A stretch of 64,000 nt of DNA, from positions 1-64,000 of the forward strand of contig NW_027597837.1 of the NCBI RefSeq assembly GCF_964194155.1, written 5' to 3'. The notes below the pieces were generated by a model. It was given only the letters and a program-made list of their open reading frames with translations, searched no databases and was not told the origin of the DNA. Positions 1 to 20,600 of the stretch are shown one piece after another. Within the stretch, counting starts at the first letter, position 1. Every line of letters starts with the position of its first letter. The position numbers and the translations under genes were made by a program. The stretch comes from Cetorhinus maximus (Eukaryota).

Positions 1-565
1 TGTTGAGGTCGGAGGAGCCGGCGGGGCTGGCGTCCGAGGCGGTGGCGGCGATGATGGTGGCGGCGTTGGCGGCGGGGTCCCCGTCCCGCTCCTCCTCCTC
101 CTCCTCCTCCTCCCGGCGGGCCGAGCACAGCTCCCTCAGGTCCAGGTTCTCCCTCACCAGGGCCTCCTGCCGCCGCTCCAGGTGGGCCAGCTTCCGGAGG
201 TAGCCGCCGACGTCCTCCCGCATCACCCGGGCGGCGTAGCGGCCGAAGGCCTGCCACTCGTGGGCCAGCCCCTTGGCCCTCAGCCGCTCCTCGTCCAGGA
301 AGCAGCAGAGGTCCCGCAGCTCCCGGTTCTCCTCCTGCAGCCGGCCGTTGACGGCCTTCAGCTCCCGCACCTCCCGCAGGTGGCCCTGCAGCCGCCGGTT
401 CACCTCCTGCATCAGCCTGCCCCGCTGCACCAGGGCGGCCAGCTTGTCGGCCTCGGCCCGCCGCAGCCGCCGGACCAGCTCCTCCTTGCCCCAGGCCAGC
501 AGGTCCGCCTCCGAGAGCTGGGACAGGTCGGCGGGGGGCGACTCCCCCTCCCCGGCGCCGCTCAT
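1..565 (-). CDS. CCDC85B: Coiled-coil domain-containing protein 85B (DIPA), 3' end truncated by window edge
   Basis: Manual minus-strand translation from ATG 565: MSGAGEGESPPADLSQLSEADLLAWGKEELVRRLRRAEADKLAALVQRGRLMQEVNRRLQGHLREVRELKAVNGRLQEENRELRDLCCFLDEER...EWQAFGRYAARVMREDV...LVRENLDLRELC, the CCDC85 family signature. Intronless here and head-to-head with FIBP as in human. An in-frame upstream ATG lies at 625. Confidence 0.93.
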   Translation of the reverse strand, partial: MSGAGEGESPPADLSQLSEADLLAWGKEELVRRLRRAEADKLAALVQRGRLMQEVNRRLQGHLREVRELKAVNGRLQEENRELRDLCCFLDEERLRAKGLAHEWQAFGRYAARVMREDVGGYLRKLAHLERRQEALVRENLDLRELCSARREEEEEEEERDGDPAANAATIIAATASDASPAGSSDLN

Positions 566-1099
566 CCTCCAGCCCCCCCTCCTCCCCGGGTCAGCGCGCA
601 CACCCAGGGGCCGGGAGCCCTGCATTTAGTTAGCGCCTCAGACACAATCCTTGTCCTGGATGGTGAAGGGGGAGGGGGGGGGGGGCCTTTCCTGCCCAGA
701 GGATGTCCTTGTCCTTGGGCTGCCGGTTACAATCCAGCCGGAGGCTCCCACTATGGGACCCGCAGTCTTAACGCAACCCCCCCCTATTGAAGTGAAGGCA
801 GCTCCTGTGCATCGATGGTTAGGACAATGTGAGCATCCTGTTCCAGCCTCACGCACCAATCCTTCTCACTGATGTCGGATAAGGAGGGGAGGGGGGGTTG
901 GAGGCGGGAGAAAGGCAGGAATGGGAAGCGGGAGGTCCGGCGGGGGGGGTGGGGAAGGGAAGGGAGGAAGCCTTTTTCCGTCGATTCAGCTGCTGCTGAA
1001 TCCAAAGCTACCTTCCGGGAGAGAGCAGAGTCAAGGCAGCAGCTACTGAAACCCACCTACTGCAGAGGTGCCTCCAGCTCCCCCCTTCAAACTCTCTGA

Positions 1100-1490
1100 N
1101 NNNNNNNNNNNNNNNNNNNNNNNNNNNNNNNNNNNNNNNNNNNNNNNNNNNNNNNNNNNNNNNNNNNNNNNNNNNNNNNNNNNNNNNNNNNNNNNNNNNN
1201 NNNNNNNNNNNNNNNNNNNNNNNNNNNNNNNNNNNNNNNNNNNNNNNNNNNNNNNNNNNNNNNNNNNNNNNNNNNNNNNNNNNNNNNNNNNNNNNNNNNN
1301 NNNNNNNNNNNNNNNNNNNNNNNNNNNNNNNNNNNNNNNNNNNNNNNNNNNNNNNNNNNNNNNNNNNNNNNNNNNNNNNNNNNNNNNNNNNNNNNNNNNN
1401 NNNNNNNNNNNNNNNNNNNNNNNNNNNNNNNNNNNNNNNNNNNNNNNNNNNNNNNNNNNNNNNNNNNNNNNNNNNNNNNNNNNNNNNNNN
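1100..1490. other. Assembly gap (N run)
   Basis: Continuous Ns. Confidence 1.
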
Positions 1491-1706
1491 TGTGTGTGTC
1501 TGGGTCTGGGTGTGTGTGTGTCTGGGTCTGGGTGTGTGTGTGTCTCTGGGTCTGGGTGTGTGTGTGTGTCTGGGTCTGGTGTGTGTGTGTGTCTGGGTGT
1601 GTGTGTCTGGGTCTGGGTGTGTGTGTCTGGGTCTGGGTGTGTGTGTCTGGGTCTGGGTGTGTGTGTCTGGGTCTGGGTGTGTGTGTCTGGGTCTGGGTGT
1701 GTGTGT
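1491..1706. repeat. (TG)n/TCTGGG compound microsatellite
   Basis: tgtgtgtgtctgggtctggg units abutting the gap. Confidence 0.95.
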
Positions 1707-2714
1707 AGGGTGATACCCACCACAGGCCAGCAGAATGGACAGGGTTAACTCAGGGAACCGTGAGGTGATAGGTCGAGAGAGTCTTGATAAGCGAGGGGGC
1801 CGAGAGGTTATCGGGGGTGTAGGCGGGAGGTGGCAGTCAGGTTAGCCCTGACCTTATTGAATGGCGGAGCAGGCCTCGAGTGGGCTGGCTCCTGCCTCTG
1901 ATTGGTGTTGTTTCTGGTAGCAGTGGCAAAGAGAGAGAGGCAGTGCAGGCTTAATAGCGTGGTTCGAACAAGCGTGCGGGGACAGAGGGGCCTGGGGTGG
2001 TTCACGTGGCATCGATCCTCGAAGGCGGTAGGACACAGTGAGAGAGCTGGTAGCCAAACCCGACGGCAAATCCCTCGACGGCAGCTCCGCCAGGCGGGGC
2101 TTGGGCGCTCGTGTGCCTGACACCAGACCTCCCGAAGCAACTGCTTCACTCAGGGTACCTCAGCCCTGGCAGGAGACCCCAGGGGTGAGGCGACTGCAGA
2201 AGCGCTTTTCGGGATGTCCCTGTAGAGGGGGAGGGGGTCAAACATGGCCGCCAGCCCCACCTGGGAGCCAACGGCTGGCGTTCGGCCAAAATGGAGGCAG
2301 CTCATGCGGCCGGGCACTTGAACGCGTTGAGGGACTTCGCTGGGGAGGTGCAGCGGCGAGGCTGGGGGTGTCGGCAATGGTGAAGAGAGGCTGGGGTGGA
2401 TAGGAACAGGGGGGTGCGGAGTGGTGGGGGTGGGGGGGGGAGGGTGAGAGGAAATGCCAATGCTTCCCACCCCCCTTGCTGCTGGTAAAATTGATGCAGA
2501 GGCAGGAGTGGGGAGGTAGGCAGCAGGCACAGCGGGCACCCATTGGCATCGTATGAACCCCCCCCGCCAGCCTGTGGACCTATCGCAGTGGGGGTGGCGT
2601 TGGGAGGGGGCTGGATTTGGGACCAGCGTAAAACTCTGCCCCCCGGAGTGGGCTTTCAGGCCAACCATCGTCAGCGGTGTGAGTGCGTGAGCAGGGCTTG
2701 CATTCATTAACCGA

Positions 2715-3110
2715 TCGAACATAAGACCTTGAGAATTAGGAGCAGGAGTAGGCCATTCGGCCCCTCGAGCCTGCTACCCCAATCAGCACAATCATGGCTG
2801 ATCATCCACCTCAACTGCACTTTCCCACCCACTTCCCCATACCTCGCAATTCCCACCCCACCCGTCTCCAAAAATCAGTACCCAATGACTGAGCATCCTC
2901 AGCTCTCTGGGGTAGAGAATTCCAAAGATCCACCGCCCTCGGAGTGAAGGAATTCCTCCTCGTCTCAGTCCCAAATGGCCGACCCCCTCACTCTGAGATT
3001 GTGACCCCCCACCCCCCCCCACCCCGTGTTCCAGACTCTCTCTCGCCAGGTGGAAACATCCTCTCGGTATCGACCCTGTCAAACCCTCTCCGAATTTTAC
3101 ACGTGTCAAT
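2715..3110 (-). mobile_element. CR1/HER1-like LINE 3' fragment
   Basis: aggagcaggagtaggccattcggcccctcgagcctgct 3' terminus plus reverse-strand RT tail (gggtttgacagggtcgat). Confidence 0.8.
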
Positions 3111-3184
3111 GAGATCGTTTGGTAATGGGTTTGTAGGATGGCGAGTGAGGGGGGAAATGTGAGGTGATCCCAGAAGGGAAAAAA

Positions 3185-3475
3185 ACAGTAAAAACTGGGA
3201 AATAAGAATACTGGTCCCAACTGGTCTTGTATTCCTTAAAATGGAACACCAATAAAAACTTGGAAATAAGAATACTGGTCCGAACTGGTCTTGTATTCCT
3301 TAAAATGGAACACCAATAAAAACTTGGAAATAAGAATACTGGTCCCAACTGGTCTTGAATACCTTAAAATGGAACACCAGTAAAACTGGGAAATAAGAAT
3401 ACTGGTCCCAACTGGTCTTGTATTCCTTAAAATGGAACACCAATAAAAACTGGGAAATTAGAATACTGGTCTGAA
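3185..3475. repeat. 64-bp tandem repeat, about 4.5 copies
   Basis: aataagaatactggtc recurs at 3201, 3265, 3329, 3392 and ~3456. Confidence 0.9.
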
Positions 3476-3494
3476 CTGTTTTTTCCTTCTACAA

Positions 3495-4283
3495 TTCATT
3501 TTGGTAGGAAGAACATGGAGAGGCGATATAAACTAAAGGGTACAATTCTATAGGGGGAGCAGGAGCAGAGGGACCTGAGGGTATATGTGCATCAGTCATT
3601 GAAGGTGGCAGGACAGGTTGAGAGAGTGGTTAATAAAGCATACACTATCCTGGGCTTTATCAGTAGAGGCATAGGGTACAAGAGCAAGGAGGTTATGCTG
3701 AACTTGTCTAAAACACTGGTTCAGTCTCAACTGGAGTATTGTATCCCGTTCTGGGTGCCACACTTTAGGAAGGGTGTGAAGGCATTAGAGAGGGTGCAGA
3801 AAAGATTCACGAGAATAGTTCCAGCGATGAGGGACTTCAGTTCCTTGAGTAGATTGGAGATGTTGGGACTGTTTTCCTCAGAGGAGAAGAGAAGGCTGAG
3901 AGGGGATTTGATAGAGGTGTTCAAAATCATGAGGGGTCTGGACAGAGTCGATAGGGGGAAACTGCTCCCATTGGTGGAAGAATCGAGAACGAGTGGGCAC
4001 AGATTTGAAGGCATTGATAAAAGAAGCAAAAGTGACAGGAGGAGAAACTTTATCAAACAGCGAATGGTTAGGGTCTGGAATGTGCTGCCCCAGAGTGTGG
4101 CGGGGGCAGGTTCAATTGGGGCATTCAAAAGGGAATCAGACTTATCTGAAAAGGAAGAACGTGCAGGGTTATGGGGAGAATGAGGGGAAGTGGCTCTGAG
4201 TGAAATGCTCGTTCGGAGATCTGGTGCAGACATGATGGGCCAAATGGCCTCCTCCTTTGCAGTAACCGTTCTGTGATTCTGTG
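3495..4283 (+). mobile_element. CR1-clade LINE ORF2 C-terminus and 3' UTR
   Basis: ORF 3587-4183 has LEYC..FW.PHFRK..ALERVQKRFTR..RLRGDLIEVFKIMRGLDRVD; 3' tail ttctgtgattctgtg. Confidence 0.92.
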
Positions 4284-4511
4284 AGTGAGTTTGAAGGATG
4301 AGGGAGGGATGGAGGTAGACTGAGGGAAGGGGGGAGGGGATTGGAAGAATGAGTGAGGGGAAAGCTTGAGTTTGGAGGAATGTGAATGGGGGATCGAGAA
4401 GGAGCGAGGGAGTGGAAGGATGGAACGGATTTGAGGGTGTTATGAGCAGGTGAGGAGGAGTGAACTGGCTCCCCTCAACTCAGCCTCCTCAGTTGGTCAC
4501 CACAAATGTTT

Positions 4512-5576
4512 TAAAAACAAAAAGCTACTGCGGATGCTGGAAATCCAAAACAAAAACAGAATTACCTGGAAAAACTCAGCAGGTCTGGCAGCATCGGCGG
4601 AGAAGAAATCAGTTAACGTTTCGAGCCTTCATGGCCCTTCGGCAGAACTGAAGCGTAGTTTGAAGAAGGGAGAAATATAAATTGGTTTAAGGTGGGTGGG
4701 GGGGGCGGGTGGTGGGGGGAGAGAGAGACATTGAGGGTGTGGTGATTGTGGAGATGAGCAGATAATCAAAAGATATCACAGACAAAAGGGTCAAAGAGGT
4801 GTTTTGAGAAAAGTGCTAATTAAGAATGGAGGACAGGATATTCAAAGTACAGCTCTAGTGGGGGTGGGGTGGAAAGGCTAACAAGGTTTTAGTTTTAGAT
4901 TTAAAAATAATGGAAATAGGTGGGGAAAGAAGAATCTACATAAATTATTGAAAAAAAAAGCAGGGTGGGGGGGGGAAGAAACGGGGTGGGGATGGGGGGA
5001 GGGGGAGTTTAAGATCTAAAGTTGTTGAATTCAATATTCAGCCCAGAAGGCTGTAAAGTGCCTAGTCGGAAGATGAGGTGCTGTTCCTCCAGTTTGCGTA
5101 GTGAAGCCCAACGCAAACTGGAGGAACAGCACCTCATCTTCCGACTAGGCACTTTACAGCCTTCTGGGCTGAATATTGAATTCAACAACTTTAGATCTTA
5201 AACTCCCCCTCCCCCCATCCCTGCCCCGTTTCTTCCCCCCCACCCCCCGCTTTTTTTTTCAATAATTCATATAGATTCTTCTTTCCCCACCTATTTCCAT
5301 TATTTTTAAATCTAAAACTAAAACCTTGTTAGCCTTTCCACCCCACCCCCACTAGAGCTGTACTTTGAATATCCTGTCCTCCATTCTTAATTAGCACTTT
5401 TCTCAGACAAAACACCTCTTTGACCCTTTTGTCTGTGACATCTTTTGATTATCTGCTCATCTCCACAATCACCACACCCTCAATGTCTCTCTCTCCCCCC
5501 ACCACCCCGCCCCCCCCAACCTTAAACCAATTTATATTTCTCCCTTCTTCTAACTATGCTTCAGTTCTGCCGAAGG
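4512..5576. mobile_element. Penelope-like element remnant in head-to-head inverted arrangement
   Basis: Arms 4636-5099 and 5111-5576 are reverse complements. The plus arm encodes SEAQRKLEEQHLIFRLGTLQPSGLNIEFNNFRS*, a GIY-YIG endonuclease C-terminus of the PLE type. Confidence 0.85.
4609..4651 (-). ncRNA. Minimal type I hammerhead ribozyme motif (PLE-associated), variant core
   Basis: Minus strand tcagtt-CTGCCGA-a-gggcc(atgaa)ggctc-GAAA-cg-TT-aactga: 6-bp stem I, 5-bp stem II, palindromic ACGT stem III. The core is CUGCCGA instead of CUGANGA. Confidence 0.6.
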
Positions 5577-5734
5577 CACAAATGTTTTAACATTTCTTTT
5601 ACCCTGGATGCCTTTTTCAAATCTATATCTGTACAGTGAACCATAAGGAGCCAATTAATGAAGTTTTCTTGAGTCAAAGAAAGAGCAAGTTTAACTACTA
5701 AATGTGAGAAAAAAATAATTAAAGATGCAACGTC

Positions 5735-5963
5735 ATACACACATGCACACACGTGCACACACAGACACATGCGCATACACAGACACGCGTGCACACAGGC
5801 ACACGCATGCACACAGGCACACGCGCATGCACACGTGCACGCACACACACAGGCACGCGCATACACAGACGTGCGCACACACACGTGCATACACAGACAC
5901 GCGCGCACACACAGGCACACGCGCATACACAGGCACACTACAGACGCGCACGCACATACACGT
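5735..5963. repeat. Imperfect (CA/CG)n alternating purine-pyrimidine tract
   Basis: cacacatgcacacacgtgcacac... about 230 bp. Confidence 0.9.
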
Positions 5964-6084
5964 ATAAGAAGTAAGGAAAGTTAGAGTCCAAATAAAAGTT
6001 AAAAGGATATGTGGCTCGAAGTCTTTTTCTTGCCTTTGAGGCGTAGATTATTAAACATTGCGGCCGACTGAAGTTATCTGGTAT

Positions 6085-6175
6085 AATAACAGAAAATGCC
6101 GGAAAAACTCAGCAGGTCTGACAGCATCTGTAGAGAGAGAAACAAGAGATAACGTTTCGAGTCCGTATGACTCTT
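6085..6175 (-). mobile_element. Penelope pLTR fragment with half a hammerhead motif
   Basis: gaaaaactcagcaggtctgacagcatctg..aacgtttcgagtccgtatgactc resembles 4560-4630; stem II gagtc/gactc plus GAAACGTT, 5' core missing. Confidence 0.7.
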
Positions 6176-7117
6176 GGGACAGGTAGGTGTAGATATGTTG
6201 CACTTCTTTCAAGATCCCGGTTCGTCAGTAGGTCTTGGATGCGTTGATTACTTGAACTGCGCTTATTCCCAGGCAGAGGGAGCGAGATTCCTTACTACTC
6301 CATTAGCAGTTTCTCCAGATTCCTCTGCTTCTGCTTGGTAAACCCAGTTCTTAAATTCCTGCCCACTGTCAATTCCAAAGGAATTCCAATTACCATGTCT
6401 GCTGTCATCATTGCTGTAGAACAAGTTATCACATTTTGATGTTTTATCTTAGAAACCTGTGACACATTTCAAAATCGTGGCAGCCAACAGGAGATGGGGT
6501 CCCTTCATCTTCCACAGTGGGGAGTTTGAGTGTCCGTTGGTTGTATATCCTGGCTAGCTAGCACTTCTTCATTGCTAGCATTACAGTTGATTAAAGTCCA
6601 ACACTTTACATTTTTAATATCTTCCTTAGTTTTGGGTGTTGATGTCCGTGTCCGACTTTTGTTCTATGGCTTATAATGGCCCAGTTATTAGCTTCTGAAG
6701 AAGTCATTATCCATTTTGATGACCCCCACCTCCCAGGTTGCTATTGCCTTGGTGGACTCTTGGTCTTTGCTGGAGAGGTAAGCTCATAAAGCTGCAAATA
6801 GCATGCCCATTCCTTTCAATTTTCCTTTTTGAAGTGGGGCTTGACACCCCCAGGTGTGACATTCCATGAGCAATCATGTCAGGGCCTGTCTGCAGTGCAA
6901 TCCATATAGTAACCCAGTGGTCAACTTACATTTCCAGAAATCAGGAAACATGTGGCAGCCATCTTTAGTCAGTGCTTTTTTTTTCGGTCTTTAAAATGGT
7001 CTAAACAGTTCAGTATGTCTCTGGTTAGCTGGTGAAGTTATAGGTAGCTACCACTCAGTCACAATTTCCCATCGTTGTGACAAGGGATGTGAGCGAGGGA
7101 ATGAAGTGAATTTAGCG

Positions 7118-7352
7118 GGATGGGATGGAGTGAGACAAGGGGATGGAGTGAGAGAAGGGGTGGAGTGAGGGAAGGGGATGGAATGAAAGAAGGGATGGAG
7201 TGAGAAAGGGTGTGGAGTGAGGGAAGGGTGTGGAGTGAGGGAAGGGAATGGAGTGAGGGAAGGGGACGGAATGAAAGAAGGGATGGAGTGAGAGAGGGTG
7301 TGGAGTGAGGGAAGGGGATGGAGTGAGGGAAGAGGTAGAGTGAGGGATGGAG
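7118..7352. repeat. Purine-rich degenerate repeat (gggatggagtgagggaa)
   Basis: Repeated ggagtgagggaaggg motifs. Confidence 0.85.
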
Positions 7353-7403
7353 GGCATTTGGAAGAATGACTGAGGGTCTGAAGGGGGATGGGTCGGGATG
7401 CCA

Positions 7404-7757
7404 TTGTTAGGGGCTGGAACTCCATTGCAAGGGGCTGGGACTCCGTTGCTAGGGGCTGGGACTCCGTTGCTAAGGGCTGGGTCTCTGTTGCTAAGGGCTG
7501 GGTCTCTCTTACTAGGGGCTGGGACTCTGTTGCTAGGGGCTGGGGCTCAGTTGCTAAGGGCTGGGTCTCTGTTGCTAAGGGCTGGGTCTCTGTTGCTAGG
7601 GGCTGGGACTCAGTTGCTAAGGGCTGGGTCTCTGTTGCTAGGGGCTGGGACTCTGTTGCTAGGGGCTGGTGCTCTGTTACTAGGGGCTGGGTCTCTGTTA
7701 CTAGGGGCTGGGGCTCAGTTGCTAGGGCCTGGGACTCTGTTGCTAGAGGCTGGGGCT
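7404..7757. repeat. 21-bp minisatellite (ctctgttgctaggggctggga), about 16-17 copies
   Basis: Direct tandem units; gives the artefactual LATESQP repeat ORF. Confidence 0.93.
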
Positions 7758-7794
7758 CCTTAGCTCCCGCCTCCCTGCCCTCGCCTCCTCCTCT

Positions 7795-7925
7795 ACTGAG
7801 CATGCGCGGGTCCTATCTGTGACGCGCCTCGCTGGCTTGTTCCAATTGGCCATCTCTCCACAGGACGTTACCGGTCACGCTGCCTGCTGTCTGATTGGCC
7901 GACCTCTTTGACCCGGAAGCGGTTG
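7795..7925. promoter_or_regulatory. Housekeeping-type, probably bidirectional FIBP/CCDC85B promoter core
   Basis: NRF1-like gcatgcgc (7800), CRE half-site tgacg (7820), ccaattgg (7842), ctgattggcc (7891), ETS ccggaag (7913); CpG-rich; lies between divergent genes. Confidence 0.65.
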
Positions 7926-8090
7926 CTCTGAGCTGTTTATTTTAGGGGGTTTATTGTAAATTTTAGCGGCTGAGATTCCCTCAGAGAGTTTCATGCGGTT
8001 CAGGGGAGGATTTCAAACTATCTGAGGGGGAGAAAGATCACTAAAACTGTCCGACCTTCAGAAAAAGCAACTGTCACCTCGTTTCGGGGC

Positions 8091-8421
8091 TAGTTACCAT
8101 AGTAACAGGCTCTGGGGAGTTAGTTACCATAGTAACTGGTTCTGGGGGACTAGTTACCATAGTAACAGGTTTGGGGGGGTTAGTTAACATAGTAACAGGT
8201 TTCTGGGGGGCTAGTTACCGTAGTAACAGGTCCTGGAGAAGTTAGTTACCATAGTAACAGGTTTGGGGGGGGTTAGTTACCATAGTAACAGGTTTCTGGG
8301 TGACTAGTTACCATAGTAGCAGGTTCTGGGGAGTTAGTTACCACAGTAACATGTTCTGGGGGGGCTAGTTACCATAGTAACAGGTGCAAAGGGCTGGGAG
8401 AGTGACAGTTACCACAGTAAC
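8091..8421. repeat. 30-31-bp tandem array with palindromic GTTACCATAGTAAC (RFX X-box) core, 11 copies
   Basis: Cores at 8093, 8123, 8153, 8183, 8214, 8245, 8276, 8307, 8337, 8368 and 8408. Confidence 0.92.
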
Positions 8422-8532
8422 AGGAAGGGACACATTAATGGTAGGACCTGTGGAGGGGTGCAGTCGCCATAGTTACCAGAGGACGCCAGGCAGTAGTTAC
8501 GGTGTGCGTGAGCGGGGAGATTGTGTGGAGTC

Positions 8533-8617
8533 ATGGCGTTGGAACTGGACGTGTTTGTGGGAAACACAACACTGATCGACAAGGACGTTTATCAGCTCTG
8601 GCTGGACGGGTATTCAG
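8533..8617 (+). CDS. FIBP: FIBP coding exon 1
   Basis: [28 protein letters not shown]; donor gtaaca. Confidence 0.95.
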
Positions 8618-11600
8618 GTAACAGGCTGAGGAGGCGCGCGGAGCATAGCCCCAACGATAAACTGGCCCGCGGTGGCCAACAGTGAACCCGGTCCCTTCCA
8701 GGGCGCCAACGGTGAACCATATCTTGCAATGTTAACCTTTAACCTGTACCAGCAGTGTTAACCTTTAACCTGTGCGAGAAAGGTCAGAGCTTAACCTCTG
8801 TCTTATATTCCATTACATCAGAAACAAAAAGAGGCCATTCAGCCCCTCGGGTCAGTACCGGTGTTTATGAGCCTCCGCCTGCCTCTCTCCATCTCACCCC
8901 ATCCTTGATCATATGTGGATCTTCCAGGCGTTTCTCAAGGGACAGTTAAATGCTGTTCAGCCTAAAATGGGACAGAATTTTGAAATAATATTCTCCATTT
9001 TCAGACTGGATTTGAAAAAGGAACTAGACAGTCGGGAGGTAGACGTGCTGAATGTTTGGCAGAAGGGGTTGGGGGCTGATCTGGTGTTGGGGGCTGATCT
9101 GGTGTTGGGGGCTGATCTGGTGTTGAGGGCTGATCTGGTGTTGAGGGCTGATCTGGTGTTGGGGGGTGAACTGGTGTTGGGGTACACCTATCTCAGTCTG
9201 ATCTAATCCACTGCTGCACCTTTGTTTCAGTCAGCGATGCTGTAACAATTCGGATCCAGAGTGGCATCTTAGAGCAGATCGGAGCTACGTCAGATGTTCT
9301 GGAGAGCGACACGATGGATCATTACCGGGCCTTCCAGATGTTGGAGCGCCTCCTGCACAGCCCCCAAAAGCTGATCAACCAACTGCTCTTCCAGATACCC
9401 CCGCCCATGCAGTCGATGTTAATTGAAAAGTACGCTGTCCGAGCTGGATTTAAATTAAATCGGGGAGTTTGCAATAATGGGGACAGTGGGACTGACACTG
9501 CCAAGCACCTTGGGAGCGAGTCCTGCCATCCTTGCCTTGTCAGCCTGTGAAGTGGGGGACAGCGTAAAGAGAGCTTTACTCTGTATCTAACCCCGTGCTG
9601 TTCCTGTCCTGGGAGTGTTTGATGGGGACAGTGTAAAGGGAGCTTTACTCTGTATCTAACCCCGTGCTGTACCTGTCCTGGGAGTGTTTGATGGGGACAG
9701 TGTAGAGGGAGCTTTACTCTGTATCTAACCCCGTGCTGTACCTGTCCTGGGAGTGTTTGATGGGGACAGTGTAGAGGGAGCTTTACTCTGTATCTAACCC
9801 TGTGCTGTAACTGTCCTGGGAGTGTTTGATGGGGACAGTGTAGAGGGAGCTTTACTCTGTATCTAGCCCCATGTTGTACCTGTCCTGGGAGTGTTTGATG
9901 GGGACAGTGTAGAGGGCTGTCCTGGCAGTGTTTGATGGGGACAGTGTAGAGGGAGCTTTACTCTGTATCTAATCTCGTGCTGTAACTGTCCTGGGAGTGT
10001 TTGATGGGGACAGTGTAGAGGGAGCTTTACTCTGTATCTAACCCCGTGCTGTACCTGCCCTGGGAGTGTTTGATGGGGACAGTGTAGAGGGAGCTTTACT
10101 CTGTATCTAACCCCGTGCTGTACCTGTCCTGGGAGTGTTTGATGGGGACAGTGTAGAGGGAGCTTTACTCTGTATCTAACTCCGTGCTGTACCTGTCCTG
10201 GGAGTGTTTGATGGTGACAGTGTAGAGGGAGCTTTACTCTATATCTAGCCCCATGCTGGGACGTGTGCTGTGTAAAACACGATGAATTGAAACACTTCTC
10301 CGTTTGGCAGGTATTATACGTTTGATGAGCCGTTTGTGCGAGAGGTTCTGGGGAAGAAACTATCGAAGGGGACCAAGAAAGACCTGGACGATGTAGGCGC
10401 GAAAACAGGGATCACATTGAAGAGCTGTCGGAGACAGGTAGAGAACAGTCACGACTCCTCATCACAGTCACAGCCACTTCACATCTGAATTGTTGCCAGG
10501 TTGCCTTCACGTTTAAGGAATGTTTGAACGGGAACTTTAATGTGATTGGAGATTCTTCCATCCAGTTCACGTTCAATGTAATCCCTTTGCTCAGTTAGTG
10601 ACCCGTGTTACCTTGAAGGTTCAGTGTTGTTGAGAGATTGAAGAGCCTGTTCCCCTGTTTGAAGGGGAGTGGTAATGTTATACACTGAGCCTCGGTTTGA
10701 CCATGCTCAGAGCACTGGGCTCGAGTCTGGCCCTCTTTTTTTTAAATTATTCGTTCATGGCATATGGGCGTCACTGGCCAGGCCAGCATTTATTACCCAT
10801 CCCTAGTTGCCCCCTAGTTCAGAGGGTATTTGAGAGCCAACCACGTTGTTGTGGGTCTGGAGTCACATTCCTTCCTTAAAGGGCATTAGTGAACAACAAT
10901 CAACAATGGTTTCATGGTCACCGTTAGACGTTTAATTCCAGATTTTTATCGGGAATTCCACCATCTGCCGTGGCGGGATTCGAACCCGGGTCCCCAGAAC
11001 ATTACCCTGGGTCTCTGGATTACTAGTCCAGTGACAATGCCACTATTCCATCCCCTCCACATCCCCCATATTAAAGGATATTGAGCCACCAGAGAAGGTG
11101 CAAACAAAGATTTACGCAGGATGACACCAGAACTGAGAGGTTATAACCGTCAACAGCAACTTAATTTACATAGCGCCTTTAACGTATTGAAACGTCTCCA
11201 GGCGCTTCACAAGGAGTGTCACAAAAACAAAAACTGACCCCGAGCCACATCAGGCGATATTAGGGACAGGTGCCCAATAGCTTGGGCAAAGAGCTCGCTT
11301 TGAAGGAGAGTCTTGAAGGAGGAAAGCGGGCCGGAGAGGCGTAGCGAGGGAGTTTCAGAGCTTGGGGCCCAGGCACAGCTGCCAATAGAGGATGGATGGA
11401 AGGTGTCAAAGCAGCAGAGGCCGGAATTGGAGGGGCGCAGAGATCTCGGAGAGTTGTGGGGCTGGAGGAGGTTACAGAAATAGTGAGGGGGACGAGGCCA
11501 CAGAGGGATTTGACATCGAGGATCTGTCGGGCCGGGGGCTCTTTTCTCTAGGAAACGGAAGGCTGAGGGCTGATCTGATGGGGGAACTTAAAACGATGAA

Positions 11601-14600
11601 GGGGGTTTCCATAGGGTCAATGTAGTGACAATGTTTCCACTTGTGGGGGAGACCAGAGCAAGGGGGCCATCAATAGGCCATGCTCACTAATAAATTCAAT
11701 CAGGAACTTCTTTACCCAGAGAGTGGGGAGAATGTGGAACTCGCTCCCACAGGGAGTGGTCGAGGTGAATAGTATAGATCCATTTCAGGGGGAAGCTGGA
11801 TAAACGCGTGAGGGAGAAAGGGATAGAAGGATATGGTGATGGGGGGGAGAAGACGAGGGGTGGGAGGAGGCTCGTGTGGAGCAGAAACACTGACACGGAG
11901 CGGATGGGCCCAATGGCCTCTTTCTGTTCCAGTAATATTCTATGTAACATTGCAAAGAGAGAGCCTTGGAAGCTGTAACAGCACAGGCTTGTGTAGAAGC
12001 AGTCTTGTGCTGAGGAGTGCCACTGTGGGTGTCACGCTACAAGGGAATTGGGCTAAGGAGGTGTGGGTGTGAGCGGGAGCAGAGCAACAGTGTGGGAAGG
12101 GGTGTGTTTTAACCCTGGTGCTTTAACAGTGGGTCACCTTTCTCCCTCTCTCTCTCTCTCTCTCTTTCCAGTTTGACAACTTCAAGCGAGTGTTTAAGGT
12201 GGTCGAGGAGATGAAGGGGCCGCTGGTGGAGAACATTCAGCAGAACTTCCTGCTTTCGGGCAGGCTTGCCGGGTAAATACCCCTCCCTCTGCTAATCAAG
12301 AGGAAGCGTTGTTGGTGCTGGGACCCGAAACCTGTGCATTTACTCCCACCACCCCGCCTCCCCGCAAAACCTGAGATCACGTCACATTATCAGAGGAAAG
12401 TCACTGCTCCGTCCATCACTTTGAAAGAGAAGGGCAGCAGACACATGGGAACCTCCCAGTTCCCCTCCAAGACATGCGCCATTCCTGAGTTGGAACTATA
12501 TTGGCCATTCCTTCACTGTCGCTGGGTCAAAATCCTGGAACCCCCTCCCTAACAGCGCGGTGGGTGTACCTACACCACAGGGACTGCGGCGGTTCAAGAA
12601 GGCAGCTCACCCCCACCACCTTCTCAAGGGGCAATTAGGGATGGGCAATAAATGCTGGTCAAACAGGGGAAGGGAGGTGCACCTGGAGACAAGGGTGGGG
12701 ACGTGGTGGTGGGGTGGGGTGGTTGGGGAAGTAGTCCATGCAGTTTTAATGTGGGGTCTTGCACCCAGCTACACAACTGTGGCAAATATGTTCAAAACCC
12801 CTTGGTTGCAGCCTGCGGCAGCCCTTTAAAGACTGCTCTTTCTGAACTGGATCGGGCCGGGTACATCGGTGCAGCTCGATATCGCACACGGGGCCTCAAA
12901 CAGAAGCGGGGCAGTGCCCCTTCCTTGAATCCTGAACAGGCGACTATCTATTGCCTGGTTTCCAGTGCGAGCCCCGGGTACCTGTTCTTTCAGCCTGGCC
13001 CAGTGTGACGAGAGGTGTACTCACGACGAGCCCGTACCAGAGGCTCGGCCTTGTCGGATGAGCGTTCCAGCATGGAGACAGCACCAGCAAGAGAGGCAGA
13101 ATCATTATTTGTAAATGTTGATCTTCAGAGGGACTTGGGTGTACTCATACAAGGAACACATTAAGTCAGCATGCAGGCGCAGCAAATAATTAGGAAGGCA
13201 AATGGCATATTGGCCTTTATTGCCAGGGGATTGGAGTACAGGAATAAGGGAGTCTTGTTACAATTGGCGGGACCACACCTGGAGTACAATGCACAGCGTT
13301 GGTCTCCACATTTAAGGAAGGATATACTCGCATTGGAGGCGGTACAGCGAAGGTTCACCAGATTGGTCCCTGGGATGAGGGGGTTGTCCTAGGATGAGAG
13401 GCTGAGTAAACTGGGTCTATATTCTCTGGAGTTTAGAAGAACGAGAGGGGAATCTCACTGAAACCTGCAGAACTCTTGAAGGGGTTGTGACAGGGTGGAC
13501 GCTGAGAGAGATTGTTCCCGCTGGTCGGAGAATCTAAAACACGGGGGGCCCAGTCTCAGGATAAGGGACTGAGATGAGGAGAAATCTCTTCACTCAAAGG
13601 GTTGTGAATCTTCGGAATTCTCTACCCCAGAGGATTGTGGATGCTGCATCGTTGAGTACGTTTAAGGCTGGGGATAGACAGATTTTTAGTGTCTCAGGGA
13701 GTTGAGGGATATGGGGAGCGGGCGCGATAGTGGAGTTGAAGTGAGAAGTTCAGCCACACTCATGTTGAATAGTGGAGCAGGCTCAACGGGCCAAATGGCC
13801 GTCTCCTGCTTCTGTTTCTTACAGAAACATCAGACATAAGGGACACCGAATCCCAACCCCGTGCCGATGGACAACTCGTGGGCTAGGATTCAAATGCATT
13901 AACTCTGCAGCAAAGTATTCAACATTCTCCCTCGAGCACTCACGCTGATGCCGATCGACCCCTTGAGGAAGGTGTGGGGGACGCGGGTGTAGATCGCAGA
14001 GCCGATCCCAAATGGCCCGATGTCCAGTCACTTTGGCCACTACAGCAGTGTCTCCTTTGGGGGGGTGTGCTGTGTGACTGCATTCCTCCCTCTTCCCCCT
14101 CCGCCCCTGACCAGGAGCCGCTGTTACTTTACCTAAAGTGACACGTTAGGTTTCAGAGGTCCGCCATCCCAGCCCTCAAACCACAGAGAATATGAGTTCT
14201 TAGGCCTCTGTACCGCTGCCAGTCCCACTCCCCTGTTGCTCTCTTCTGTAACGGTGAGGCTTTGCCGAGTGTTTTAATTTGTCTGCTCCTCCCCCTCCCT
14301 CTCCTCACCTGCGCTTCCTCAAGTCCAAAGAGAGCACATCTGGCCCACAGCTGGGTCTACTTGTCCTCCACCAGACGTGGCTGGAGCATTCCCACAGCTT
14401 CCCCGCCAGAGCTGCTTGCTGCTCTTGGATAGAAACATAGAAACTAGGAGCAGGAGGAAGCCATTCGGCCCTTCGAGCCTGCTCCCCCATTCATTATGAT
14501 CATGGCTGATCATCCAACTCAGTAGCCTGCTCCCGCTTTCTCACCATATCCTTTGATCCCTTTCACCCCAAGAGCTATATCTAACTCCTTCTTGAAAACA

Positions 14601-17600
14601 TACAATGTTTTGGCCTCAGCTACTTTCTGTGGTAGCGAATTCCACTCTCTGGGTGAAGAAATTTCTCCTCATCTCAGTCCTAAATGGTCTACCCCATATC
14701 CTCAGACTGTGACCCCTGGTTCTGGACTCCCCCACCATCGGGAACATCCTTCCTGCATCTACCCTGTCTAGTCCTGTTAGAATTTTATAGGTTTCTATGA
14801 GATCCCCCCTCATTCTTCTGAACTCCAGTGAATATAATCCTAACCGACTCAATCTCTCCTCATATGTCAGTCCTGCCATCCCAGGAATCAGTCGGGTAAA
14901 CCTTCGCTGCACTCCCTCTGCAGCAAGTACATCCTTCCTCAGATGAGGAGAGCAAAACTGCACACAATATTCCAGGTGTGGTCTCACCAAGGCCCTGTAC
15001 AATTTGCAGCAAGACATCCCTGTTCCTGTACTCGAATCCTCTGGCTATGAAGGCCAACATACCATTTGCCTCCTTTACCACCTGCTGCACCTGCATGCTT
15101 ACCTTCAGCATACTGGACAGTAAAGTCCCCCCCTCCACCAAACCCCCCACACACTTTTGTCCTGTCCTATCAACTGCCTCCTTCGAAACCCCCACCTCCT
15201 CTTTCCCCCCCACACTCGCACCTCCAGCAATGAGGGTGAAGAGCCCCCCCACCCACTCCGGGACCATTGTCACCAGGATCGAGACTATCCTTTCATCCCC
15301 CATCCCCCACCCCCCCGCCCACCGAAGTACTTGACCCCGATCCGGTGTTCTTCCCACCCCCCCCACTCTCATTTCACCCCAACCCCATCCTTTCCCTGAG
15401 CTCACCTTATCCACTAGAACTACCTTTGCCCCAACTCTGACCCCACCCCCCACCCACCGAACCTCCACCCCTCACCCTGAGCACCCCCAGAAACAGAGGA
15501 CCGGCCAGCACTGGAGAGGGTACAGAGGAGAGTTACAAGGATGTCACCGGTGAGGTTGAGGGACGAGGAGAGATTGGATAGGCCGGGGTTGTTCTCTCTG
15601 GAACAGAGGAGGCCGAGGGGAGATTTAATTGAGGGGCCTAGATACACTGACAGAAAGGACCTATTCCCCTTATCAGAGATCTGGGGGGGAGGGGGGAGGG
15701 GTCATAGGTTTAAAGAAATTGGTAGAAAGATTTGAGGGGACTTGAAGAGTAAATTTTATTTTTACCCAGATGGTGGGGATCTGGAATTTGTTGTCTGGAG
15801 CAGGCTCGAAGGGCCGAATGGCCTCCTCCTATTTTCTATGTATGTCTGGGAGAGGCAGAAACCCTCAAATATCTGAAACGCTCTTGAATATTCACTCAAT
15901 AGTGCGCAAACCTGCAGGACCAAGAACTGGAATGTAGGATTAGGCTGGATTGCTCGTTCTTGGCCAGCAAAGGCAGGAAGGGCCGAATGGCCTCCTCCCA
16001 TGCCAGGAATTTTCAGCGCTCTCCTTCCTGGCCTCCACGCTCTCTGAAGTTGTTAAGTGCTCCCCGCTCCTCGATTACTGTCCTTTCCCTTTGCAAACCC
16101 GCGCACCCACCACACACCACCCCCCCAAACACACCCCACCCCCCCATCTCCAAAATCCCATTGAGGTTTTGCACATTTGTCACCTCCTGGGACATCTGAA
16201 GTCTTGACTGTTTTGGGACCATCTAATGGTACAGCACAGGAGGAGGCTATTCGGCCCATCGTGCCTACACCAGCTCTTTGATAGAGCTATCCAATTAGTC
16301 CCACCCCCCTACCACACAACCGCACGTTCCCCCATAGCCCCGCAAACATTCCCTTGTCAAGTATTTATCCAGCTCCCCGTTCGAAAGTTAATATCGAATC
16401 TGCTTCCGCCACCCAGACCACAGCGACTTGCTGCGTTTAAAAGGTCTCGTGCGGAACGCGCACAACCCAGTTGGGCCGAATGGCCTGCTTCGGTGTCATA
16501 AAATCCAACCCTCTGTCTGCCAGTGAGCTGGGCAGCGTGCCCCTGAGACGCCTCTCAATGCTGCCAAATGTGCCCCCCCCCGGGGTTGGCAGGTGAGGGG
16601 ATAAGGGGCAGGAAAGTGACCTTGGGTGACCTGCCCACCAGGTCGAGGTGTCGGGTTGGTGTGGGATGTGGGGAGGGCTGGGGTGGTCCGAGGCGTTAGT
16701 GGTCATTGTCTTGCTTTTTCATGATGTTTCTTCCACCTTCACCCCTCCCCTCCCAGTGATTACGCCGCCATTGTCTTTTTTGCTAACAACCGGTTTGAGA
16801 CCGGCAAGAAGAAACTCCAGTACCTGACCTTCGAGGACTTTGCCTGCTGCGCTGAGCAGCTGATTCAGAACTGGACACTTGGAGCTGTGGGTGAGTGCGG
16901 GCATCTCTGACCTGGGATAGCCAGTGAGGCCGGTAGCCTGTCTGGGTGTCGGGAGCTGGCCATAGATTAGAGAATGGAGTGTGGAGGTGGGGAGCTCTGC
17001 TCTGCAAAAGCTTTTCCAAGATATCGCTGTCCTGTTCTCCCAACAGCACCTTCCAAACCCGCGAACTCTACCATCTGCAGATGCATGGGAACACCAGCAC
17101 CTACAAATCCCCCTCCAAGCCCCACAGCATCCTGACCTGGAACTATAACGCCGTTCCTTCACTGTCGCTGGGTCAAAATCCTGGAACGTCCCCAGCCCCG
17201 TGCTCCCTGCAAACTCCCCCCAACACACCCCCCCAATATCACTGTGGGTGTTCCTACATACAGACATACGAATTAGGAGCAGGAGTAGGCCATTCGGCCC
17301 CTCGAGCCTGCTCCGTCATTCAATAAGATCATGGCTGGTCTGACTGTGGCCTCATCCCCACATTCCCGCCTACCCCCTGATAACCTTTGACTCTCTTGTT
17401 AGTCTAGAGTTTATCTACCTCTGCCCTAAAAATATTCCTTGACCCAGCCTCCTCCGCTCTCTGGGTAAGAGAGATCCACAGACTCACGACCCTCTGAGAG
17501 AAAAGATTTCTCTTCATCTCCATCGAAAATTGGGAGACCCCGTAAATTTTAAACGGTGTCCCCTCATTCTAGCTTCTCCCACAAGGGGAAACATCCTCTC

Positions 17601-20600
17601 ACCATCCGCCCTGTCCAGTCCCCTCAGGATCTTATATGTTTCAATAAGACCACCCCTCATTCTTCTAAATACAGGCTCAGGCTGTCCAACCTTTCCCCTT
17701 AAGATAACCCCCTTCATCTCGGGTATCAGTTGGGTGAACCTTCTCTGAACTGTTTCTAATCTGTTTCTTATCTCTTAAATAAGGAGACCAAATCTGTACA
17801 CGGTGCTCCAGATGTGATCTCACCAATGCCCTGTACAATAGGCCTTGGGCTCCCCAAAGTCCCGTGCAATTCAGAAAAGACACCCGGCTTGAACATATTC
17901 CTTTTGTTTGCAGAGAATGGGCCCCTGCGTATGAACAAGTGTGGCTTCTAGCAAGTATAAATGAGCCACCATACGAGCTTAACTCTATCTTAAATTTGGT
18001 GTTAGTGTAGCCATTAGCGCACACAGGATTGGTCAGCAAGTGCTGCCTGACTCTGTGATTTCCGTGAGCCTGTGGTTCTCCACTGCTTTCCCCATGACAA
18101 CACCTCAGCCAATCGGAGCCGGCTTGCCGACCAATCGGCACCCTGATCTCCTGCAGTGCGAATTGTTGCGATTCTTTGAAATTTGGTATTCTTGTGTTTG
18201 TCCGGAGCATTCTCATTCCCTTCTGCCCTTCCGAGTGTCATCTCCCTGGACTATCCTGAGGGGAAGCTTGTGGTTTTTTTTTGCCTGCGTTATGACTTCG
18301 GAAAACCCCTTCTGAAATTGACACCCGGAGTGTCGCGTCGGTCTCCCCCAGGTAGAAAGCCGAACCCCAGCAGCCGACGCTGGTCATGAAGGAGTTGCCT
18401 CCCCGGCCTGGCAGGCAGACCACGGCCAGTGCCCAGGTGCCTGGGTGGTCACTCCTCGTACCCTCAGTCGTGAGGTTAGGCCGGGCTTCAGCAGGCAAGC
18501 TCAGAGTTCCTTCCCTGTGTCCCCTCTGGTGTTTTTCCATTCGGGGGGTCAGGGGAGTCCTATAAAATATCCCCATTGTGGGCATTGGGGGCTAAAATCA
18601 GCTGTAAACGACTTTCTCGTCTGTTCAGTAAACACAAAAAATTATCCCAGCATCACTGCATTCCCTGCAAAAAATAATCCTCCGACTCGTGTCACATCTT
18701 CAGCTCATCCCAAAGCACTTTGCTGCAAAACAAGTACTCTTTTTTTGTTTTGGAAGTGATGTAAAAAATGCTCATTTGTGCACAGCAAGATCCCACAGAT
18801 GTCGAGCCGGCTCAATTGTCCTCTTTCTTTTTAAGTGGTTTGGGTGGGGGAGAACCGGTCTCTGTTCTTCCTCTAGCACTCTGCCCACCCTGACCATCCC
18901 CTCCCCGACCCACATCCCCTCCCCGACCCACATCCCCTCCCCGACCCACATCCCCTCCCCGACCCACATCCCCTCCCCGACCCACATCCCCTCCCCGACC
19001 CACATCCCCTCCCCGACCCACATCCCCTCCCCGACCCACATCCCCTCCCCGACCCACATCCCCTCCCCGACCCACATCCCCTCTCCCATTCACATCCCCT
19101 CCCCACCTCACATCCCCTCCCCCCCTCACATCCCCTCCCTGACCCACATCCCCTCCCCACCTCACATCCCCTCCCCTGTCCACCCTTCTTGGTTTTATGT
19201 CTCATCCAAAAGACAGCGCCTCCCTCAGTGCCGCGCTGCCTCGGTGCCCACCCTCCGACAGCGCATCACTCCCTCAGCACCCATCCTCCGACAGCGCGTC
19301 ACTCCCTCGGCGCCCACCCTCCGACAGCGCGTTACTCCCTCGGCGCCCACCCTCCGACAGCGCGTCACCCCCTCGGCACCCACCCTCCGACAGCGCGTCA
19401 CTCCCTCGGCGCCCACCCTCCGACAGCGCATCACTCCCTAGGCACCCACCCTCCGACAGCGCATCACTCCCTAGGCGCCCACCCTCTGACAGCGCATCAC
19501 TCCCTAGGCACCCACCCTCCGACAGCGCATCACTCCCTAGGCGCCCACCCTCCGACAGCGCGTCACTCCCTCGGCACTCACCCTCCAACAGCGTGTCACT
19601 CCCTCGGCGCCCACCCTCCCTCAGTGCCACGCTCCCTCAGCGCCCACCCTCCGACAGCGCGTCACTCCCTCGGCGCCCACCCTCCGACAGTGCGTCACTC
19701 CCTCGGCGCCCACCCTCCGACAGCGCGTCACTCCCTCGGCGCTCACCCTCCGACAGCGCGTCACTCCCTCGGCGCTCACCCTCCGACAGCGCGTCACTCC
19801 CTCGGCGCTCACCCTCCGACAGCGCGTCACTCCCTTGGCGCCCACCCTCCGACAGCGCGTCACTCCCTCGGCGCCCACCCTCCGACAGCACGTCACTCCC
19901 TCGGCGCCCACCCTCCGACAGCGCGTCACTCCCTCGGCGCCCACCCTCCGACAGCGCGTCACTCCCTCGGCTCCCACCCTCCGACAGCGCGTCACTCCCT
20001 CGGCTCCCACCCTCCGACAGTGCGGCGCTGGGACTGTCGGCCTGGATTGTTGGCTCAAGTCTCTGGAGTGGGGCTCGAACCGATAATCTCTGACTGAGTT
20101 GGGTGCGAGGTACCTGCTGACTGACAGCTGACACCATGGAAACTGCTTGTGTCTGATACAGAATGTCAAATACATATTGACAGTCGGGTGCCAATTCATG
20201 AATCTACACGTGTAATGCTTCCCACCAACATTGACAGAACACAGTAACAGGGTAACAGCTTGGCTCACCTGGCAGTGTGGTGTCTTCGACTAAGTTAGTC
20301 CTCACATCCGAGATGACTGACTGACTTTGGTGGGGTTCAGATGTGTGCTTCAAAAATCGATTGTGAAAAGTGATTTGGAAATTTGGAAACCAAGGCCTGT
20401 GTTCAGTCTAGATTGAGCAGACCCCAGCATTTCGTGATCTCAGATCTGCCCCATCCGAGGTGTGTCTTCTTCCCCCCCCCGACTCAGAGGGCAGTGGTCT
20501 GCCAGGGGGGTAGATGGTCACTGATGTGAATCTCATCCTTTCCAGATTGTCTGGTCGAAGATATGGATGTTGACCTGGACAGAGAGTTTCTGCAGGATCT

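Follow-up and report, generated by a model that had tools for sequence, protein, structure and literature searches.

The FIBP gene of the shark Cetorhinus maximus carries, in its transcribed 5' leader, a 30-31 bp minisatellite with 11 copies of a 14-mer that resembles the X-box, the binding site of RFX transcription factors (8093..8421, + strand, of the 64,000-nucleotide window analysed here, contig NW_027597837.1). From its sequence we judge the array to be a lineage-specific homotypic cluster of predicted RFX sites that came from ordinary minisatellite growth. The account we prefer, to which we give a probability of about 0.5, is that of an old, locus-specific minisatellite, grown by ordinary slippage and unequal exchange, that would serve as a redundant cluster of RFX1-3 sites and not as a phased copy-number switch.

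The boxes start at 8093, 8123, 8153, 8183, 8214, 8245, 8276, 8307, 8337, 8368 and 8408. Six are exact copies of GTTACCATAGTAAC and five are one-base variants, as the original prediction had it, compared to a mean of 0.22 matches per shuffle in 100 dinucleotide shuffles of the window. The spacings, read 5' to 3', are 30, 30, 30, 31, 31, 31, 31, 30, 31 and 40 bp, which bears out the predicted 30-31 bp period of the first ten boxes, and TRF reports a period of 31 with 9.8 copies at 8086-8385 and a higher-order period of 92 bp. The published X-box consensus, GTNRCC(N0-3)RGYAAC (PMC5752003), fits 9 of the 11 boxes, so the motif was correctly named; these nine and a single box at 7867 make up all 10 matches in the 64-kb window. 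The boxes had been described as palindromes, and near-palindromic they are, but with 2 mismatches to the reverse complement the symmetry is imperfect. An array box is three changes away from the ideal GTTGCC inverted repeat, and the binding strength of RFX tracks closeness to this ideal, affinity dropping with changes (PMC2797782). Given the fit of nine boxes to the consensus and the three changes from the ideal, the array box is a good, though not ideal, predicted RFX site. A lone degenerate X-box-like 14-mer, GTCGCCATAGTTAC, is present at 8463..8476 (+ strand), as predicted; it is weakly conserved, with 2 changes in each of two related species (B and C, below).

A search of 3.99 Gb found the array unit to be unique to this locus, which rules out a dispersed satellite family as the identity of the array. 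We also rejected a coding role: no open reading frame of at least 100 codons spans the array in the stop-to-stop list for positions 1-20000, and 31-bp steps shift the frame. By eye, the N-terminal extensions of 75 homologous proteins gave no sign of a translated X-box repeat.

The boxes had further been predicted to be helically phased, a claim that fails. With 10.5 bp to the helical turn, each step of 30 bp turns the site by -51 degrees and each of 31 bp by -17 degrees, placing the first ten boxes at 0, 309, 257, 206, 189, 171, 154, 137, 86 and 69 degrees. Box 4 thus stands 206 degrees away from box 1, and across ten boxes the drift adds up to about 290 degrees, so that the sites do not share a single helix face. 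Among all periods between 15 and 70 bp, 30% fall within 1.5 bp of a multiple of 10.5, and hence about 30% of possible periods would have passed as phased at the earlier tolerance.

FIBP (PF05427) is single-copy in the genome and has its ATG at 8533. The coding part of exon 1 occupies 8533..8617 (+ strand; PF05427 positions 2-28) and exon 2 occupies 9231..9430 (+ strand; PF05427; 3' end approximate), the closest named relatives of the latter being shark FIBPs (Heptranchias 94%, Chiloscyllium 91%). For comparison we used four of 24 candidate sequencing runs, from related species B and C, three of RNA (X15, X16 and X20, from two studies) and one of DNA (X5, species B). The RNA runs were shown to be spliced RNA by contigs that depart from the genome at 8617 into exon 2 sequence, and spliced contigs cover the array in all three, from both species: the array is transcribed. 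In X16, three contigs with 30-base overlaps form a single path from 7918 to exon 2. The contigs end on their 5' side at 7918 (X16), 7937 (X20) and 7975 (X15) with no loose end, while the DNA run X5 continues upstream. These ends give a weak hint of a FIBP transcription start at about 7918-7937, just 3' of an ETS motif at 7913, and of a 5' leader of about 615 nt (7918..8532, + strand). The RNA contigs begin approximately 170 bp 5' of the array, which extends from about +175 to about +505 relative to the inferred start. The array is therefore inside the transcribed first exon of FIBP and not upstream of the transcript; the original prediction, which set it in front of the FIBP start codon, was right as regards the ATG at 8533, but the array belongs to spliced exon 1 and not to sequence upstream of the transcript.

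About 40-50 bp upstream of the inferred start, on the minus strand at 7867..7878, lies a single, non-repeated consensus X-box with zero spacer (GTGACC GGTAAC). Such a box turns up in only 44 of 20000 dinucleotide shuffles of the unique promoter sequence (327 bp; p = 0.002), and none of the differences listed for species B changes it. A second minisatellite, found by TRF and motif scan at 7404..7758, has 16.9 copies of a 21-bp unit. Of the 17 units, 14 contain an RFX half-site, RGYAAC on the minus strand; half-sites occur in 3.5% of shuffled units (p = 0.035). This array too is unique to the locus, and its period is exactly two helical turns, with the half-sites in phase. We take the 21-mer to resemble the RFX5 / MHC X1 site. 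The motif scan also points to a core promoter of housekeeping type at 7767..7920, with a GC-box-like motif at 7767, an NRF1-like motif at 7800, a half-CRE at 7820, CCAAT motifs at 7842 and 7894 and the ETS motif; CpG o/e is 0.91 in 7801-8000. The FIBP promoter probably uses RFX, the best evidence being the 7867 box and the 21-bp half-site array.

Within about 500 bp of the inferred start, the boxes thus stand at about -50 and at +175 to +505. Validated human X-boxes occupy a window of -500 to +500 (PMC5838959), at whose edge the array lies. In the mouse, de novo X-box enrichment is reported from -250 to +50, and the RFX peaks, whose centres lie slightly 5' of the start, go together with an enrichment of CCAAT boxes (PMC7498320). 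By analogy with the mouse, the peak position fits the 7867 box better than the array, which lies beyond -250 to +50. The array had also been proposed to act on CCDC85B. A CCDC85-family coding sequence does lie head to head with FIBP (2..565, minus strand, cut by the window edge; PF10226, E 1.5e-65), but LINE fragments separate it from the array, 7.5 kb away from its start codon (565), and no contig of the three RNA runs covers 7765-7917, which gives no indication of a shared start; this target is not supported. With a MUS81 exon near 55400, the FIBP-CCDC85-MUS81 neighbourhood presumably fits the human gene order.

Species B and C differ from Cetorhinus maximus at about 4-10% of leader sites, and both have the array. 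Both are without 61 bp (two units) after the third box, a difference that appears as a skip in X16, as a loose end equal to the fifth linker in X20 and as an insertion at 8171 in X15 and in the DNA run X5. Because the junction of species B is seen in DNA, the difference is genomic and not a product of splicing; a small GT-AG intron, considered for the 61-nt skip in X16, was ruled out since the species B DNA contig has the same junction (insertion at 8171, mismatches beyond). In species C a loose end at 8385 is consistent with one more unit towards the 3' end of the array. The order and the private variants of boxes 7-11 are the same in all three species. With the array in every species, differing unit content and retained private variants, these alignments indicate an old array that predates the split of the three, gains and loses units and is without rapid homogenisation. 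The idea of a changing copy number is thus upheld as a difference between species, with copy numbers in B and C that are approximate, being from fragmented contigs.

We compared cores with linkers using only contigs with every difference listed, covering 8276-8617 (boxes 7-11). Between species, 2/70 core sites changed as against 5/76 linker sites (p = 0.44) and 13/111 sites of the leader 3' of the array (p = 0.05). Among independent core changes, four of six preserve the consensus (p = 0.03-0.10, depending on transition bias); the other two break it and have persisted, one being common to all three species. Within the array (ten units), there are 4 extra alleles in 14 core columns and 12 in 11 flank columns, and the linkers contain slippery G-runs. 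The predicted excess of linker variation is therefore seen inside the array, where G-runs occur, but is not significant between species, and we regard the whole as weak evidence of selective constraint on the cores.

The original prediction derived the array from one ancestral X-box. Amplification is borne out, at this locus only; an ancestral vertebrate X-box at FIBP is unsupported, since Fibp is missing from the mouse, frog and human RFX data. Mouse Fibp had 0 matches in the available text of the RFX1/2/3 promoter-peak and peak-association tables of PMC7498320 (Tables S1, S6, S8 and S10, which include comparison with testis and Min6 cells), where the control Tmem17 is present, and Ccdc85b has a single entry in the mouse data, weakly up-regulated. 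Fibp is likewise absent from the Rfx2 tables for mouse testis as available with PMC4498915, fibp is absent among the 911 direct Rfx2 targets of Xenopus (PMC3889689 supplements), and neither human FIBP nor CCDC85B has an RFX7 peak in U2OS cells (PMC9981735 supplement). A metagenome scan for distant FIBP promoters yielded 2 FIBP loci among 162 candidate stretches, one without exon 1 and the other a divergent locus from an animal, where 9.3 kb contain no X-box, neither of them informative on vertebrates. Among the titles and abstract beginnings listed, we found no paper on a link between FIBP and RFX or on an X-box VNTR.

Tandem repeats make up 26% of the window (35 arrays) and 44% of 7000-9300, and with local content this high, no special cause is required for amplification. 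Genome-wide, the exact FIBP 14-mer shows no enrichment, with 107 strand matches versus 173 for a reversed control. Searches for paired X-boxes gave 18 pairs at 5 loci versus 2 for the reversed pattern, 17 versus 1 at wider spacing, and 18 strand matches at 5 loci versus 0 with a relaxed pattern. Four tandem arrays other than that of FIBP have an X-box-like motif in most units. One (C2575, about 20935-21906; L033:4436-5407) lies in an intron of a divergent GRK2/3-like kinase and has 23 X-box-like units, 18 of them strict, at spacings of 30 and 54 bp; it varies mostly at free box positions. Another (C4287; L075:940-1776) has 18 near-X-boxes at 46 bp, none strict, also in an intron, and the exon before it looks to us TBC1D10-like. 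The third (C21, about 58995530-58996393; L059:4530-5393) has 24 units of 36 bp with GTTACCATGGCAGC, 2 of them strict, and adjoins a CpG-rich stretch with a YY1-like motif. The fourth (C25, about 15357060-15357296; L070:1397-1634) has six units of 40 bp with GTCGCCATGGCAGC, none strict, in a CpG-rich first-exon-like position; 3 kb downstream is an open reading frame of about 1265 codons with a C-terminal zinc-finger-like motif, which we take to be TCF20/RAI1-like.

Non-tandem sites were also found. Two gene starts 1.5 kb apart (C601; L031:3575-5140) each have non-tandem X-boxes, with C-rich minisatellites between them; the minus-strand gene has a Transmemb_17 domain and is presumably TMEM17-like, a ciliary gene. 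A satellite (C12) has boxes in scattered units only. No genes were found beside the sites C21, C9 and C1663, and Pfam scans of 143/150 and 150/260 candidate open reading frames near other arrays returned only transposon domains and Transmemb_17. A further X-box pair (C35; L062:199-1779, L045:1501-1577) lies about 3 kb upstream of a 527-codon open reading frame that has no Pfam hit and that looks to us like a VGF-type neuropeptide precursor.

Under the reading we prefer, slippage and unequal exchange would have multiplied an X-box unit in a region prone to repeats, at a promoter whose RFX input was probably already in place. RFX dimers might then occupy several array copies at once and add an RFX input to a housekeeping promoter of the GC/NRF1/CCAAT/ETS kind, probably in cells with high RFX2/3, whether germ cells or ciliated ones. 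The box at -45 (7867) would probably be the main contributor, and a few copies more or fewer would probably have little effect. Such an input would be a gain of the shark lineage and not an ancestral vertebrate link of FIBP with cilia.

The array could instead be a passenger, a neutral minisatellite that contains an X-box by chance and whose binding, if any, has no effect on FIBP; we think this unlikely. Such an array may have grown from a repeat found throughout the genome. The genome contains 4368 exact matches to one 25-mer of a 42-bp minisatellite family, presumably the tail of a SINE or LINE, and similar sequence also occurs as single dispersed copies in the window. The units of the intronic C2575 and C4287 arrays clearly derive from this family (scores 43-47 and 33-34, 0/200 shuffles). 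The FIBP unit has 15/17 bases in common with one family unit and comes first for likeness among 39 TRF units of the window; against two family units, letter shuffles give p < 0.005 and p = 0.015, and the median linker score is above all 48 flanks of the same 14-mer elsewhere. This likeness would permit an origin unrelated to a native X-box and so counts against a redundant cluster. With fairer, composition-matched nulls, however, it is not significant: the FIBP linker score is equalled by 8% of shuffled linkers and by 11% of the window's 16-mers that begin with AGG. The X-box form of the family is also rare, with 18 matches at 4 loci. We hold a derivation of the FIBP unit from the 42-bp repeat to be unlikely, though with appreciable weight. 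The passenger reading gains from the absence of FIBP among RFX targets in tetrapod data and from the non-significant contrast of core and linker, as well as from a CCAAT array in an intron of MUS81 that shows that motif-like arrays arise away from promoters. That array (55471-55735) consists of 16.6 copies of a 16-bp unit with a full, NF-Y-like CCAAT motif, at 100% identity beside an exon acceptor, and is followed directly by a 31-bp array (55733-56266). By its sequence it expanded very recently, and it serves as a control for arrays that carry motifs outside promoters. The non-repeated box at 7867 is hard for this reading to account for, and the core changes lean to free positions.

At the other extreme, some ten X-boxes may have been kept by selection so that FIBP output scales with RFX, through activation in ciliated or germ cells or through an RFX1 roadblock downstream of the start. 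Copy number appears near 9-11 in three species despite the turnover of units, and two separate RFX-type arrays flank a single promoter. There are also precedents: a promoter VNTR of human TRIB3 that contains a transcription-factor site scales expression (PMC7425993), four tandem X-boxes drive an RFX2-responsive reporter (PMC2797782), and zebrafish fibp1 morphants have fewer Kupffer's vesicle cilia (as cited in PMC3128613). Yet zebrafish fibp1 is presented as a target and mediator of Fgf8 signalling and is not described as an RFX target in the available text of that source (PMC3128613), and the copy numbers of B and C are, as said, approximate. Sharks evolve slowly, and persistence of the array over about 4-10% leader divergence is for this reason weak evidence of selection; we hold a selected rheostat to be improbable. 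More improbable still is a larger scheme in which cartilaginous fishes repeatedly build tandem RFX arrays out of native promoter sites and of one abundant minisatellite from a retroposon tail, wiring genes (FIBP, GRK2/3-like, TBC1D10-like) into the RFX germ-cell and cilia programme, with RFX2 on the units opening DNA in meiotic cells and favouring further expansion in a self-reinforcing manner. Least of all would we expect the array to act as RNA, a structured 5' leader that slows scanning together with upstream ATGs. The array is transcribed, the leader has three upstream ATGs (7993, 8351 and 8438), one of which (8438) overlaps the main start out of frame, and units 1-2 form a hairpin of -24.6 kcal/mol (z = -3.7). 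But another two-unit stretch has z = +0.2, only one of three short stretches folded was significant, and repeats of a near-palindrome always fold somewhat. The run of 5' UTR hairpins that had been predicted is weak, at -3.7 kcal/mol for a single unit and z = -1.8 for the whole array, whose centroid is mostly open; the upstream ATGs may matter more than RNA structure.

The array has parallels in three known systems. The 33-bp VNTR of the TRIB3 promoter has a unit of about 30 bp with a transcription-factor site, multiplied in one lineage near a gene start; it is polymorphic at 1-5 copies, its unit is single-copy in other mammals, and its dosage effect is supported by reporter and eQTL data (PMC7425993). 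The FIBP array differs in having about 11 copies, in lying within the transcript and in being old and common to three species. Target promoters of RFX1-3 have a consensus X-box near the start with CCAAT boxes close by, and the 7867 box is in a typical position (PMC7498320, PMC5838959, PMC2797782). Known targets as reported in these sources have one to three sites, whereas FIBP has 11 X-box 14-mers and 14 half-sites from tandem repeats, most of them well downstream or upstream of the start, and its mouse, frog and human orthologues are absent from target lists. Human minisatellite VNTRs, finally, are enriched at transcription starts and some are eQTLs (PMC8096271), a likeness to a gene-start minisatellite of changing copy number. 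That study lists an expression link for only 187 genes, so most such human repeats are without one shown, and the copy change of the FIBP array is known between species only.

At present the array counts as one more promoter minisatellite whose motif is good. Should RFX bind and dosage prove to matter, a single transcription-factor site would here be naturally titrated from 0 to 11 copies within a 5' leader, and repeat growth would have brought a housekeeping gene into the cilia and germ-cell regulon. With similar arrays in the same genome, one may ask whether minisatellites create working homotypic clusters or merely copy sites where repeats form.

Some smaller features of the window deserve mention. 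The upstream ATG at 8438 opens a 46-codon frame (8438-8577) that overlaps the FIBP start out of frame, and none of the differences listed for species B and C alters this ATG. At 5030-5200 a SINE- or LINE-like fragment folds back on itself, its two inverted arms meeting near 5100. A 69-bp repeat family is represented in at least six places of the window, and a 5.3-kb array at 56391-61656, with 142 copies of a 37-bp unit, belongs to the same family as the repeat at 44052-44609.
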